A DNA stretch of 64,000 nt from positions 116,002,001-116,066,000 of the forward strand of contig OZ024742.1 in assembly GCA_964016885.1 (NCBI GenBank), in the 5' to 3' direction. Below, one piece after another: positions 358 to 62,922 of the stretch (its first letter is position 1; every line of letters starts with the position of its first letter). Both the position numbers and the translations under genes were made by a program. This DNA is from Eledone cirrhosa. Its lineage: Eukaryota. The notes under the pieces were generated by a model. The model saw only the letters and a program-made list of their open reading frames with translations, was not told the origin of the DNA and did not search any database.

Positions 358-682
358 AAAATAACCGGAGGCTGGACTGGTGTAAATCCTTGAAAGGTTT
401 ATTATACTATGATCATTTCAATGACCGGGTTCAGTATGAATCCGGTGACATCATCAGGTATTCAATGTATAACTCGAGGGCGGCCGACTGAAGTAGAAGC
501 TGCAAATAGTAGGTCCTCATCTTGTCTCTGATGGTCAGCCCTATGGATTTTATCTGTTATATTCCTTTGTTATACTTTGAATACCTGATGATGTCACCGG
601 ATTTATACTGAACCCGGTCATTGAGATGATCATAGTATAATAAACCTTTCAAAGATTTACATCAGTCCAGCCTCGAGTTATT
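358..682. mobile_element. Fold-back insert (~105-115 bp inverted arms) carrying a hammerhead; Penelope pLTR-like
   Basis: 368-472 is the reverse complement of 569-674 (gaggctggactg...tataac / gttata...cagtccagcctc). Each arm holds a hammerhead core. Followed by (TA)n(TG)n. Confidence 0.75.
404..461 (-). ncRNA. Type I hammerhead ribozyme (family A)
   Basis: Minus strand: atac CTGATGA tgtcaccgg-attcatactgaac-ccggtcatt GAA ATGATCAT A gtat. Helix I atac/gtat, palindromic helix III, AUA site. The plus-arm copy (581-638) has GAAA>GAGA. Confidence 0.7.
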
Positions 683-697
683 TTAGAATATATATAT

Positions 698-806
698 ATG
701 TGTGTGTGTGTGTGTGTGTGTGTGTGTGTGTGTGTGTGTGTGTGTGTGTGTGTGTGTGTGTGTGTGTGTGTGTGTGTGTGTGTGTGTGTGTGTGAGTGTG
801 TGTGTG
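698..806. repeat. (TG)n microsatellite
   Basis: About 50 TG units seen directly. Confidence 0.95.
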
Positions 807-1120
807 GAGGGTGGTGGTATGCAGGAGCCGATGAATAATCGAGTGGTGAAGTAGCATCAGCTCCTGCATTCGGAAACGGACTACAGCATCACCCTCAGCC
901 GCTTCACCAAATATCGTTGTTTGCCAAGTGTGTATGTATATAAATATATATAGAAATATCATACGGTTTATACCCTATCATTGATTGGTAGATTTATCTG
1001 TGTATATATATATATATATATATATATATATATATATATATATATATATATATATATATAAAATATTAAAAAAATAATGAATAAAACAATGAAACAGTTC
1101 CTTATATTAAACAAAAAAAG

Positions 1121-1275
1121 TTCATTATTTAACGATCGTTTCTAGGATATATATGTGTTAGAATTGGCATGCATATTCAACAGATCTATGTACAAAATTA
1201 TACAAAATTATACAAACTATCAAAATTAAGTATACATACCAAACACATATATATGCCGTCTTCAGAAATAATGAA
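1121..1275 (-). ncRNA. Type I hammerhead with very long helix II insertion (family B)
   Basis: Minus strand: ttcattattt CTGAAGA cggc-atatatatgtgtt...aacacatatatat-ccta GAA ACGATCGT T aaataatgaa. 10-bp helix I, 13-bp helix II segment, palindromic helix III. Second copy at 58197-58347 (+). Confidence 0.7.
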
Positions 1276-1499
1276 TTATATTTATTGATAATAACAACAA
1301 TTCAAAATTACAGGTCTGTTTGGGAACAGAGTTCAAATTGACCAATGAAAATACAAAAAAGTTCATACAGTTAGGTGTGTGTATATATATGTAAGTAACT
1401 TCGTTCACAGATATGCATAAAAATATATGTTCACATGCATACGCATGCCAAAAAGATGTATGTAAATACAAAAATTCAAGGCTAATGTCTCTGTATGTC

Positions 1500-58395: not shown

Positions 58396-60807
58396 ATATA
58401 TATATATATACATATATATATATATATATATATATATATATATATATATATATATATATATATATATATATATATAGAGAGAGAGAGAGAGAGAGAGAGA
58501 GAGAGAGAGAGAGAGAGAGCAGATAATCAAGGGACATTTCGCTGGAGGTTAGGCAGTAACTCTATGAGGTTAAACCGGTTTAAGCAATCCAAAAGCACTT
58601 CAAGTAAGTAGTCTACCACATCTTGTATGTCTACTGCTTGCATCAGTCAACACTTATGTAAATTAATTACGTAGGTCATTGATTTCGTTTGCCAATACTT
58701 GCATTAATTGATCTTGTGGGAGTTATCTCCCATGATAACCGACTTAAGGATTTAATCAAACCCAACACATGAGCTTATTTTAGAGGTGCAAGATCATTTT
58801 AGTGAATGGTAGTTGTTAAGCTAAGCGCATTTAATGATGGACATATATTTTCAGTTAAGGATGAAAGTAGCGATTCTTTGCTTAAAATTTAATCTAACAT
58901 TTTAATAAATATATATATATATATATATACGCACACACACACACACACACACACACACACACACACACACACACACAGACACACACGCACACACACACAC
59001 ACATATATATATATATATATATATATATATATATATATATATATCACTAAGTTCCTTGCATTGAAAAGCCGACTGAGCTTTAGATTATCTTCGTTATCAA
59101 TGCTTTGTATTTGTATGCGTCTGTGGCAAGTGGTTTGGAATAATATATTTACCACTAAATAGACGATCATTAATTGAAGCAATATACATGACACAGCATA
59201 ATAATAGAACAAACACACAGAGAACATGCTTATTTGAAATCAGAAATAAATACCTGTCTGATGGCGTCTAAATCTAATGATCAAAACTCGAATTCTGGTA
59301 GTAATTCCTGTACCAATCAGGTTACTCCGCCAACAGTAAAGACGCTGCAAGACATGTCAACAAAAATGGCTCCTCAATTGTTCGATCAATCGAAAATCAA
59401 ACAACGTATTAATTAGCATGTACGTAAGTGAGTATTTCGCAAGCACGTTTGTTCTTGACACAATTCGCCACTCAAATCAAAGTCATACAATACGTGATAA
59501 TTACAAATATAATCAATCCAACGGGCTCCTACATATATTCCGCCTAATTAATTCCATTTATTATAATTGTGTCAATGCTATGCTATGGTAATGTTATTCA
59601 CACACAATGACATGCAGTGAGCTCGAACACGGCTTCTCATTGTTACGAGGGAAGCTTCTTAACCACAGGTTTATGCTTACGCTAATATTTTCATTAAAGT
59701 ATGTATAAAAGTAAATCTGTTCTATATATATTAAATGTCAATACTTCACGATGAAACGGCGAAAACCGAAACATTAAAACACAATTATAGAATTGGTATA
59801 AGAATAACTATATTTCTACTTCTACAACACAAGGAATGTATCTCATACCAAAGTTTTTGAAAATACACAAACAAATACGTACACTGCTTATTATTAATCA
59901 CATTATATGATAACTGAAGTATAGCCAAAGGCACTATCAAATATCTTGCTGATACACATTGTAGTTTCGATGTGACAGGTAAATACAATGGTTTTATCGA
60001 CGTTTTAACCGGCATCATCTTTGAGAGAACAGGAAAAGTGGGATCGATCTTGATATTTTCTAGTCTTCCCTGTACTTCATCAGAAAAGGTATGTCCATCT
60101 TTTGACTACGGAGAGATTGGTAGCTTATATATATTTATAGTGTATATAAGTTTGAACAGAGCTAAGCTGATTGTTTGACATAAAAATGCTCTAAACGAAG
60201 TTAATTATATTATTCGCTGCAGGGAGGTTTTTGATTATTTGTCATATAATATAAGGTATACAACAAACAAAGCAATTTAACACTGTTGAAGTTTATGTAT
60301 TCTTAGTCACAAGATAATAAAACCTCCATTGCTAGATATGAGTATTCTTTTTCCAATGAAAAATTTCAGAAGTTTAAGAAACCTATCCGATCGTTCCAAT
60401 TTTTCTTTTTTTTTTCTTTTTCACAAATGCTGACGTACATTTAAGGAGTAATGTCATTGTTGACGTTTCATATTCATTTCATCTTACATATCTATGATTC
60501 AAGGTTGAAGACGTTTGGCCTTGTGGTAAGGGTGTTGGACTAACGATCATAATATCGTAGAGATAGATTACTGGATCAATTAAAGGAGTAAGATTGTCTC
60601 TCAGACGCTTAACGGGCGTTGAGCAAAAAAGTAAACGAGGCGTATATTACATTAACTTTACAATCAACTGTAAACACACTTCAGTGCGTCTGAGCATATG
60701 TTTTAAATACCCTATAAGCTAATAACAGTTCTGTGGAAAGAAGATGAGTATTCCTTTCTTGATGAAAATCACAGAATGCCAGTGGCGGACAGGGTTTAAA
60801 AGTCTTG

Positions 60808-62000
60808 GTTGCCAGGAGATGAAGGGCGCCCACCTACATATAGAATGCTATCATTTAATTTTCATAATGAATAAATCACATTTTCGAAAAATACAAAACA
60901 GTGCAATTAAATTTTTGCGGGAAAATATCTTACCTTCTCCAATAAAAAATATGTACTTTACGAAATCCAGAGACTTTGAACAATGACCAGATGTCGACCC
61001 TAAATATTACTAATAGCTCTTGGAAAGCCAAGTACGACTCCATATCTTTTTAACTTTGATTTTGAAAGTGGGTTTATAATTATTAATTTTCATTATACTT
61101 TTGTAGCAGTCTCGGGGGCCTAGCTGGAGGAAAGATACACGGTGGTGATCCTGGTCTAAATTTCGGTCCTGGTCGGGAGTAGCGGTCCCTGGAAACTTTT
61201 TTCAGTTTTTTCTATTGGTTGTAAAATAAAAACTGAAAAAGGTTACATGTACCTCTTGACCAGGATTGAACTCATGGCCGAGATCTCCACCGTATTTAGT
61301 ACCTACCGCCAGGACACAGGGACAACTACAACAAACTTATGAAAATTCATTGTTATAAATCTACTGTCAACATTTTCAAAACAAAGTGTTATGGTGTCGT
61401 TCATGTCTTTGTTAATGTTATTTCTCCTACATAAGGTCGACTTCTAAATCATGTCGGTGTTCTATAAACTATATCCTCGTTTCGTTTCTCATCTTTCTAG
61501 ACTACATTTTAACCGGTAATCCATGTTTCCTTTCTGTTACACCTCATTTCTCCCCCCCCCCCCCTCTCTCTCACTCTCTCTCTGTGATATTTGAATTTAC
61601 TATGATTTGGGCTTACCTTATTCCTATATATATGTTTTTGCATGTCAGTTAGATTCAAAATTAAAATGATTGGCATTATATATATATAAATATATATATA
61701 TATATATATATATATATATATATATATATATATATATATATATATATATATATATATATATATATATATATATATATACATATATATATATATGTATACA
61801 CAGTCGGTCTAGGTTTCAAATATTGGTTGCCAGATGAAGGGGGCCAACCTACATATAGAATGGTATCATTTATTTTTTATAATGAATAAATATCATTTTG
61901 AAAAAAATACATAATTGCAATCAAATTTTTGCGGGAAAATATCTTACCTTCTCCAATAAAAGATATTATGTATTTTGCGAAATCCAGAGACTTTCAATGA
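60808..62000. repeat. ~175-bp direct repeats (60808-60985, 61827-62000)
   Basis: ggttgccag..gatgaaggg.gcc.acctacatatagaatg...cgaaatccagagacttt in both. Confidence 0.75.
61052..61388. mobile_element. Old fold-back/MITE with long imperfect arms
   Basis: actttttcagttttt/aaaaactgaaaaaggt, tcctggtc/gaccagga, acggtgg/ccaccgt, aattttcat/atgaaaatt are nested symmetrically. Confidence 0.6.
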
Positions 62001-62187
62001 TGACCTTTGGTCTTTCACACTCACTCATTATATATATATATATATATATATATATATATATATATATATATATATATATATATATATATATATATATATA
62101 TATATATATATATATATATATATATATATATGCGCACGCGCGTGTGTGTGTATCTGTATATATCGATCCATCTATCTAAATATATAT

Positions 62188-62380
62188 TATAGAAGAGCTT
62201 CTACAGGACCAGAACTGTTTCATTCGTGAGAAATCACCAAGAAGCTTCCTGATTATTTCTCACGAATGAAAGAGTTCTAGTCTTGTAGAAGCTCTTCTAT
62301 ATTAAAACTTTTATACTCTGCTATGTATTGAGTACCTTACGTACCCTGGTTACCACCGATTCAACCCGGAATAACTTATA
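62188..62380. mobile_element. Family G insert forming a spacer-less palindrome (centre 62244/62245)
   Basis: 62188-62301 is self-complementary around gaagcttc; both hammerhead cores are mutated. Confidence 0.75.
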
Positions 62381-62387
62381 CATATAT

Positions 62388-62922
62388 ATAATCGAAAGAA
62401 TTGATGAAAGAGAAGCAAGCCGTTAAACATATTTATAAAAATCTCTTACATATGTTTCGCCCAATGGGGCTCATCTGAGGCAATTACATAGGCAAATAAT
62501 GTAATAATGTACCCTGTACGGGTATAATCATAATTTAACATCAGAATGCATTACACTGTGTAGCAAATGACTTTACTCATAATTGAAACTCATACTCATA
62601 CCTTAACACTGCCTCATTAAATCGATTTGACAAACAATAATTAAATTAACCCCTTGTAGCAAGAAATAAATAATTGTTTACTAGCGGTCATTATTCTGAC
62701 AGTTCACTATACTTTACACCGTTTAATTACCTCCCTTAGCGCACAGGGACTTTTTGCTTCACAGAGTAATGCATTCTGATGTTAAAATATGATTATACCC
62801 GTACAGGGTACATTATTAAATGATGTGCCTTTGTAATTGCCTCAGATAAGCCCCATTGGGCGAAACATTTTTATAAATGTGTTTTAACGGCTTGCTTCTC
62901 TTTCATAATTTCTTTCGATTAT
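62388..62922. mobile_element. Fold-back insert (~170-bp arms) with variant hammerhead-like motif
   Basis: 62388-62560 is inverted to 62760-62922. Minus strand: ct CAGATGA gccc catt gggc GAA ACATATGT A ag. Confidence 0.7.

Follow-up and report, generated by a model that had tools for sequence, protein, structure and literature searches.

A stretch of 64,000 nt from Eledone cirrhosa (assembly GCA_964016885.1, contig OZ024742.1, positions 116,002,001 to 116,066,000; hereafter, the window) carries many copies of the hammerhead ribozyme motif, mostly in inserts next to (TA)n microsatellites. This locus raises the question of what these inserts are and what determines where they end. We consider it probable that the motifs are hammerhead folds in the pseudo-long terminal repeats (pLTRs) of Hydra-clade Penelope-like elements (PLEs), together with small retrozymes, that end at (TA)n, and that target-primed reverse transcription (TPRT) likely starts about 5 nt before a conserved hairpin.

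Hammerhead motifs in the window and in the genome

A type I hammerhead was described as CUGANGA, helix II, GAAA, helix III, UH and a helix I of at least 4 bp. The first-pass annotation of the window had listed core-intact motifs at 18 coordinates, which are left motif edges and cover 25 motifs. Twenty-four of these passed the descriptor; the motif at 53737 has an intact core and a helix I of only 3 bp and therefore failed. The eight motifs reported in an array of 311-bp units were recovered, six on the minus and two on the plus strand. Helix III was, as claimed, almost always palindromic (22 of the 24 passing motifs); it is a true hairpin at 38532 and a near-palindrome at 54147. Decayed motifs were also present, with one-mismatch cores at 38027, 43266 and 48169. 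The proposed check against dinucleotide-shuffled sequence gave means of 0.03 (global) and 0.05 (local, 500 nt) matches in 100 shuffles each, with a maximum of 1, and the reversed window gave 1 match versus 24 in the forward sequence. It is confirmed that the 24 motifs have the type I hammerhead core and helix order; they are putative self-cleaving RNAs.

An initial descriptor that demanded the helix II pair adjoining the core recovered only 7 sites, since a mismatch or an extra base sits there in most families. In an Rfam E-value scan of the window, only two motifs with the palindrome ACTAGT scored (HH9, 31.8 bits), and no window motif reached the gathering score of 52; the atypical PLE forms of the hammerhead are poorly modelled. 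Otherwise, scans of the window and of 33094-33505 returned TA-driven or hairpin-driven microRNA noise, with nothing over the tail hairpin described below. Dimeric PLE hammerheads were reportedly described by Lunse et al. in 2017.

We assigned the motifs to families A to K: A (404), B (1121, 58197), C (2669, 3138), D (the array, 54673, 54935), E (33219, 33407, 55883), F (35983), G (38532), H (38890, 54147), I (39077), J (52142) and K (53737). At least 11 families with unrelated stems had been proposed. Pairwise comparison gave 12 sequence groups, and most groups are indeed unrelated; however, 38890 and 54147 are weakly related (z of 4.2), and 35983 and 52142 have a common 3' flank, so that the groups merge to 10-12 families and the lack of relatedness was slightly overstated.

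Motifs of this kind are found across the 3.0-Gb genome. In a sample of 100 evenly spaced 10-kb stretches (1 Mb), the strict descriptor found 130 motifs, 83 of them palindromic, while three shuffles of the sample gave 2, 0 and 0. These 130 motifs represent 31 families and 74 insertions, and 58 of the 100 stretches contained none. Extrapolation from 130 per Mb gives approximately 390,000 motifs genome-wide (bootstrap, 83-185 per Mb, or 249,000-554,000). A loose core pattern had 338,273 matches in the whole genome, as opposed to 50,710 for its reverse. The motif density of the window is about threefold the genome mean and lies in the top ~3% of 64-kb equivalents, and its TA-tract density is ordinary. 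The window is typical in kind and not special for this genome.

Inserts end at (TA)n at fixed distances

The location of the inserts next to (TA)n was borne out: all 25 motifs have (TA)5 downstream. In the 18 copies that come last on their strand within an insert, (TA)5 lies 34-231 nt from the cut site; the remaining 7 copies are internal to an array. The suggested test of boundary enrichment agreed. In the 1-Mb sample, 69 of 83 terminal copies had (TA)6 within 300 nt downstream; upstream, 32 of the 83 did, and the value for background positions was 16.5%.

The distance from the cut site to (TA)n is fixed in each family and is bimodal, with a short and a long end (131 and 165 nt in D, 45 and 134 in E, 52 and 144 in H, 150 and 210 in family N from the genome sample). 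Counting over all fetched loci, beyond the random sample, ends directly abutting (TA)5 were found in 39 of 41 cases for the long end of family P, 8 of 8 for E, 23 of 39 for H, 7 of 12 for the long end of G and 11 of 39 for D, where the misses printed are inner array units. In a short interspersed nuclear element (SINE), the sole usable control because three of the four control repeats had too few copies, one end abutted (TA)5 in 3 of 88 copies and the other in 4 of 92, with a background of 2.1%. Same-family pairs were nearly always arranged back to back (59 divergent, 1 convergent). Thus, the 3' ends of these elements adjoin (TA)n at family-fixed distances.

A bulged hairpin opens the tail

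The tail, the stretch from the short to the long end, opens with a hairpin in which (A/G)CTC is followed by an inner stem that varies, a bulge of 2 nt with T as its first base, and GAG(T/C); NCT comes next. It is present in families A, B, E, F, G, H, K, P and Q and in many others. One form of the hairpin had 67,032 matches genome-wide versus 1,731 for the reversed pattern; the G-C form had 24,367 (control, 688), whereas the mismatched A/C form had 2,943 (control, 1,189). A loose pattern was too noisy (84 matches versus 53-72 in shuffled sequence) and was replaced by a structural pattern (80 versus 6-17), one branch of which favours T in the bulge. When pairing was not required, the first inner pair was Watson-Crick in 27 of 36 families, versus 14.9 after shuffling. 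Among 28 anchor-selected representatives, 94% of cells were paired, three pairs changed on both sides, and the score was reached by none of 500 shuffles; the outer pair was GC in 14 and AU in 12, and the first inner pair was UA in 13 and CG in 11. G-U/G-T pairs are tolerated at inner positions. RNAalifold recovered only the 4 outer pairs from a MAFFT alignment. Twister, twister-sister and pistol, compared by consensus, were dropped as identities of the hairpin, which is too small and had no Rfam support.

Most mapped junctions with (TA)n lie just before the hairpin: of 106 that map within 28 nt of a hairpin, 94 end 1-8 nt before it, with a median of 5. Where the leader of an element is complete, the hairpin is doubled. 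Full-length H leaders have twin hairpins (at 47700 and 47606 of the window and at seven further loci), as does the leader of family B. In B, the short site lies approximately 5 nt in front of hairpin 1, and 8 of 38 copies end at or just before it. Among 30 long ends, 22 terminate some 6 nt short of hairpin 2 and 8 continue into the leader.

The hairpin extends beyond this genome. Among the six new Hydra consensi in the supplement of PMC8557442 (Craig et al. 2021), inspected by eye, an exact hairpin is present in Hydra-2_Amil from a coral and in Hydra-2_Ajap and Hydra-1_Ajap from a sea cucumber; Hydra-1_Ajap has two copies at its 5' end, and Hydra-1_Crog has a near match. Five of 10 metagenome loci include the leader, and all five have the hammerhead followed by the hairpin (the hammerhead of L182 was identified by eye); the other five lack that region. 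Twin hairpins were found in L182, L184 and L185. L185 meets (TA)n immediately ahead of hairpin 2, and in L182 the 3' copy ends immediately ahead of hairpin 1. A metagenome scan with one protein query found no relative.

Parent elements of the hammerhead families

The elements and remnants in the window are as follows.

277-347, minus: family A tail hairpin
404-461, minus: family A hammerhead with ATGATCAT as helix III; inverted partner, decayed, at 585 (plus); insert ~232-688
1121-1275, minus: solo copy of family B with a short end; hammerhead ACGATCGT, helix II region of 116 nt
2313-3405, plus: family C non-LTR (long terminal repeat) retrozyme insert, predicted, 469-bp monomer; hammerheads 2669-2713 and 3138-3182 (ACTAGT); left arm inverted
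5453-7848, both strands: family D non-LTR retrozyme array, predicted, 311-bp monomer; 6 minus and 2 plus hammerheads (ACGCGT); (TA)n at each end
7872-8690, minus: 3' end of a non-Hydra PLE, decayed; GIY-YIG tail identified by eye; degenerate hammerhead-like pLTR
15284-15585, minus: family P non-coding fold-back, very abundant; hammerhead 3' half; tail hairpin 15355-15381
33094-33505, both strands: family E inverted insert; hammerheads 33217-33287 (minus) and 33405-33475 (plus), ATGCGCAT; tail hairpin 33145-33172 (minus) in the long arm
34564-35500, plus: Hydra-clade PLE remnant (reverse transcriptase end, endonuclease)
35935-38320, both strands: family F; inverted pLTR arm with hammerhead 35983-36090 (minus); Hydra-clade coding remnant 36429-37400 (plus); 3' pLTR with decayed hammerhead at 38027 (plus)
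38502-38580, minus: family G hammerhead, hairpin helix III
38752-39008, minus: solo pLTR of family H with tail hairpin 38818-38840 and hammerhead 38890-38955 (ATATATAT)
39077-39216, plus: family I hammerhead (AGTACT) and short end
39400-40930, plus: Hydra-clade PLE remnant with degenerate hammerhead-like 3' end
43166-47795, minus: Hydra-clade PLE of family H; twin hairpins 47677-47700 and 47586-47606 in a 5' pLTR piece; broken open reading frame (ORF) 45318-47371; 3' pLTR with decayed hammerhead at 43266; unrelated repeat inserted at ~43668-44590
47823-48460, plus: family L retrozyme-type repeat; decayed core at 48169
50754-50886 and 62185-62378: decayed relatives of family G; tail hairpin 62315-62336 (plus) in the latter
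52142-52302, plus: family J hammerhead, ACAATTGT, 80-nt helix II region
53675-54012, minus: family K insert; hammerhead 53737-53787, helix I of 3 bp
54147-54347, plus: H-related hammerhead, ATATGTAT
54548-55136, both strands: family D inverted pair; hammerheads 54673-54715 (minus) and 54935-54977 (plus)
55818-55981, plus: family E copy; hammerhead 55881-55951
56763-57105, plus: second copy of family K, core decayed
57200-57885, plus: family Q, Hydra-clade endonuclease end and 3' pLTR; CAGAAGA (U4A) core; tail hairpin 57803-57851
57921-58392, both strands: family B inverted insert; hammerhead 58197-58347 (plus); long arm with tail hairpin 57968-58051 (minus)
62387-62923, both strands: family R inverted insert; non-canonical CAGA core in each arm

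The first-pass annotation had placed two families, which it lettered F and H, in pLTRs of coding PLEs. Two window families do flank coding remnants, and our letters were matched to the earlier ones by that alone. Linking each family to an autonomous element, as had been suggested, worked for B, E, F, H and Q, which adjoin Hydra-clade ORFs, and weakly for J, but not for A, C, D, G, I and K; A, G and K carry the Hydra-type hairpin. Family H forms the 3' pLTR of a PLE at many loci besides that at 43166-47795. Family E flanks an ORF in loci L109 and L063. Family F flanks the remnant at 36429-37400, and both F and J sequences follow an endonuclease piece in locus L039. Family B is the pLTR of an intact element, which occurs as near-identical tandem units (G000:C2:170424001-170452000, loci L311-L313) of 6.06 kb that are 99.7% identical, each with a long 3' untranslated region and an 813-aa ORF containing RVRWR, SDKT, CNCRNKTNC, CRLC and CNH.

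By motif and similarity, family B and the H-family ORFs have the Hydra-clade layout, in which a single ORF encodes a reverse transcriptase (RT) and then a C-terminal GIY-YIG-type endonuclease. The RW(K)/DKT motifs take the form RVRWR and SDKT in B and RLRWC and SDKT in locus L032. The CxCX5C linker and the CxxC and CxH motifs around the endonuclease end are present, as are the hammerhead in the pLTR, the tandem/inverted layout and the (TA)n target. Pfam searches with 16 window ORFs matched no PLE family and returned only Helitron domains. Judged by these sequence features, families B, E, F and H are pLTRs of Hydra-clade PLEs, and J is weakly so.

Other families depart from this scheme. Family N, which comes from the genome sample and is not one of the families listed for the window, is Neptune-type, with a CX2-5CxxC linker (CIDKKCITC in P0003) and a hammerhead ~200-310 nt after the ORF. 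Family Q (pLTR at 57690-57885, plus strand), of which there are at least 17,179 copies, retains both the hammerhead fold and the hairpin and has the core CAGAAGA; all 100 copies listed among its 17,179 matches have A instead of U at core position 4. The passages of PMC3088659 that bear on this position describe U4C as a weakened natural hammerhead variant and do not mention U4A. Family R has CAGA in all three arms seen. Family P (27 copies in the fetched DNA) retains the hairpin, but the CUGANGA half is missing from most copies.

The monomers of families C (469 bp) and D (311 bp) are non-coding, and each contains a single type I hammerhead whose helix I is extended and stable on folding. Both families occur on many contigs as 99%-identical arrays, in most of which a minus block precedes a plus block. 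By these features they are tandem non-LTR retrozymes. No parent element was found for either (C, 30 best loci; D, a 1.4-Mb sample). They may be circular RNAs that dimeric hammerheads excise and a PLE RT copies repeatedly around the circle, and such rolling copying would yield arrays of identical monomers in two opposed blocks. The tails of C (2313-2420) and of the retrozyme-type family L (loci L035 and L130) have a common short motif unlike the Hydra hairpin.

A ribozyme-bearing retroelement system had been offered as the explanation of most fold-backs in the window. This explanation is supported, and the retroelements are mostly Hydra-clade PLEs plus retrozymes, but it does not cover every fold-back; the short one at 22577-22704 looks like a miniature inverted-repeat element of the Tc1/mariner type of DNA transposon and unlike a hammerhead element.

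A model for insertion and its alternatives

In the model that we favour, the GIY-YIG endonuclease would nick both strands of a (TA)n tract, and the RT would bind either of the two hairpins in the RNA leader and copy from just 5' of the one bound. The two hairpins would thereby set the two RT start sites that bound the PLE tail, each start lying about 5 nt upstream. Copying from two nicks would generate an opposed short arm and long arm, the latter with the tail, which would be joined after early truncation; such truncation would therefore leave most copies as stubs with the hammerhead alone. The hammerhead is probably not needed for insertion, which fits families P and Q, both of which keep the hairpin. 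In the Poseidon PLE from Anolis, the tail is delimited by two internal sites at which the RT begins, and hammerhead mutants still insert (PMC11167929; Frangieh et al. 2024).

A stronger form of this proposal seems to us evenly balanced between right and wrong. It holds that the doubled, bulged RNA hairpin is the RT-binding element and start-site ruler of Hydra-clade PLEs in cnidarians, echinoderms, molluscs and crustaceans, and that the hairpin and not the hammerhead is the cis signal for insertion into (TA)n. If so, the hairpin would resemble a template-boundary-like element for a telomerase-related RT, and any hairpin-bearing RNA could be inserted into (TA)n, which would explain the PLE tail, the ~390,000 stubs, and the coreless and U4A families.

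Several observations weigh against the favoured model. Families C, D, I and L have two end points and no clear hairpin, so the hairpin is not the sole end signal. No attached ORF was found in the 30 best loci each of A, C and K or in the 1.4-Mb sample for D, G and I. Twelve of the 106 mapped ends fall outside the 1- to 8-nt interval, and the mapping took in only ends within 28 nt of a hairpin. The covariation counts are of families irrespective of their relatedness and do not represent independent events. By eye, the Hydra-1_Amil and Hydra-1_Obim consensi of the PMC8557442 supplement have no hairpin, and both end ~40-50 nt after the cut site. The Poseidon start sites lie in an AC-rich stem-loop that is not the hairpin found here (PMC11167929). 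Finally, in folding of monomers, helix I is not favoured in most pLTR hammerheads.

The hairpin could instead be a promoter or an RNA-end signal, with the short end reflecting a transcription start or an RNA cut and the hairpin acting in transcription or RNA processing rather than in RT initiation. Its position in the 5' leader, directly before the ORF, is what such a signal would predict, and the pyrimidine/A-rich stretch before it may resemble an initiator element. Internal promoters are also contained in PLE pLTRs (PMC11167929). However, both ends are 3' ends of arms in the sense of the element, each stopping before a hairpin copy, where cDNA synthesis begins, and a folded structure, as opposed to a linear DNA motif, is indicated by the compensatory changes and by the variation in loop length; we therefore think this reading unlikely. 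It is similarly doubtful that the hairpin acts in DNA, as a cruciform or single-strand structure that the endonuclease recognises at resolution, trimming the ends ~5 nt before it. The present sequence data fit an RNA and a DNA stem alike, PMC8557442 attributes the tail to endonuclease-mediated resolution, and the tail of the D. virilis element is required for endonuclease recognition (PMC11167929). Nevertheless, G-U/G-T pairs are tolerated in the inner stem, and the boundaries of the Poseidon tail map to RT start sites in vitro (PMC11167929).

Two further readings concern the association itself. The (TA)n tracts might have grown from AT-rich insertion ends, or the inserts might merely survive in microsatellite-rich regions. 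Hammerhead counts do correlate with tract density over the 10-kb stretches (Spearman, 0.55), and many short ends show a TA-like overlap of 1-4 nt. Yet SINE ends in the same DNA so rarely abut (TA)5 (3 of 88 and 4 of 92), young 99%-identical arrays are already flanked by long tracts at both ends, and a (TA)n preference is given for nearly all Hydra families in PMC8557442, which makes a secondary association very improbable. That the motifs are chance matches in AT-rich palindromic DNA has a negligible probability: no motif reached an Rfam gathering score and helices II and III were permitted to be loose, but shuffling (24 matches versus at most 1 in 200 shuffles; 130 versus 0-2 per Mb) refutes it, and the 338,273 versus 50,710 loose cores also count against it.

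Comparison with known systems

Earlier publications already describe PLE hammerheads and their many families, as well as the palindromic helix III, insertions in inverted orientation and the targeting of (TA)n. Both (TA)n targets and hammerheads are given for nearly all Hydra families in PMC8557442. The elements described here resemble its Hydra-clade PLEs with a C-terminal endonuclease, including Hydra-1_Obim, in the RW/DKT motifs, the CxCX5C linker, CxxC, CxH and the pLTR hammerhead, and likewise in the (TA)n targets, the inverted 5'-truncated arm and the one-sided tail. They differ in the many families and very high copy numbers, in the 6-kb unit of family B (mostly <3 kb in the published elements) and in tails of ~60-130 nt, as opposed to 30-40 nt. 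The twin hairpin is absent from the main text of PMC8557442, where the terms 'hairpin' and 'stem-loop' occur 0 times.

The hammerheads of PMC4209133 (Cervera and de la Pena 2014) likewise form many mostly solo families per genome, with opposite-strand pairs 100-700 bp apart, and share the palindromic helix III, the extra nucleotide before helix II and the presumed dimers. They number ~2,000-9,000 per genome, in contrast to ~130 per Mb here, where helix II regions also reach 116 nt and one family has a fixed U4A. Like published non-LTR retrozymes (PMC7229834; Li, Clavereau and Pollet 2026, 10.64898/2026.07.22.740005), C and D are low-GC, non-coding tandem monomers with a type I hammerhead and an extended helix I; unlike them, their arrays consist of a pair of opposed blocks that end at (TA)n with the long and short ends typical of PLEs, and their circular RNA is a prediction. 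Poseidon (PMC11167929) shares two internal start sites that bound the tail, AT-rich nicking of both strands, and a hammerhead dispensable for insertion in vitro; it differs in belonging to another clade, in having start sites inside the ORF and in having no conserved RNA signal defined.

Neither cephalopod hammerheads nor the covarying bulged hairpin were found in print in the literature covered, which included few subscription journals. A repeat annotation of Octopus vulgaris (PMC13282606) contains 'ribozyme' and 'hammerhead' 0 times each. What we describe is mostly a known kind of system at an unusual scale plus one undescribed element, the hairpin.

The density of ~130 hammerheads per Mb is far above the published counts compared, namely 126,247 in the ~28-Gb axolotl genome, which is approximately 9 times larger (10.64898/2026.07.22.740005), and ~5,000 in a mussel. 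This scale suggests that PLE stubs account for many of the fold-back repeats that lack a classification in such genomes. The hairpin also bears on how the PLE tail is defined and on which feature of the RNA is bound by the RT, the protein-binding motif having been left undefined in PMC11167929. With a conserved hairpin of six pairs and an intact young element of family B, this question is directly testable. A compact start signal for a (TA)n-targeting, telomerase-related RT would be of mechanistic and biotechnological interest.

Other features of the window

Two hammerhead-like features stand apart from the families above. An inverted repeat at 48599-49027 contains a hammerhead-like remnant at 48842 (minus) with an 8-bp helix I and an apparently duplicated core region. 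A repeat at 63195-63300 (plus) and 63945-64000 (plus), with 13 BLAST matches in the fetched DNA, has the core strands in reverse order: UH, then GAAA, then CUGAUGA.

The region at 9000-12000 is GC-richer and has several short open frames, four of which were tested and gave no Pfam match. The abundant SINE-like repeat that served as the control for the (TA)n counts, with ~90 copies in the fetched DNA and not TA-targeted, is found at 24006-24206, 24442-24562, 30201-30349 and 51673-52075. A broken Helitron at 24541-29042 (plus) matches the Pfam entries Helitron_like_N, PIF1 and Pif1_2B. Two copies of a non-coding repeat ending in CTAG, which we take to be Helitron-like, lie at 41732-42390 and 43668-44590. 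The second interrupts the family H PLE, and a further copy interrupts a family I copy in locus L049.

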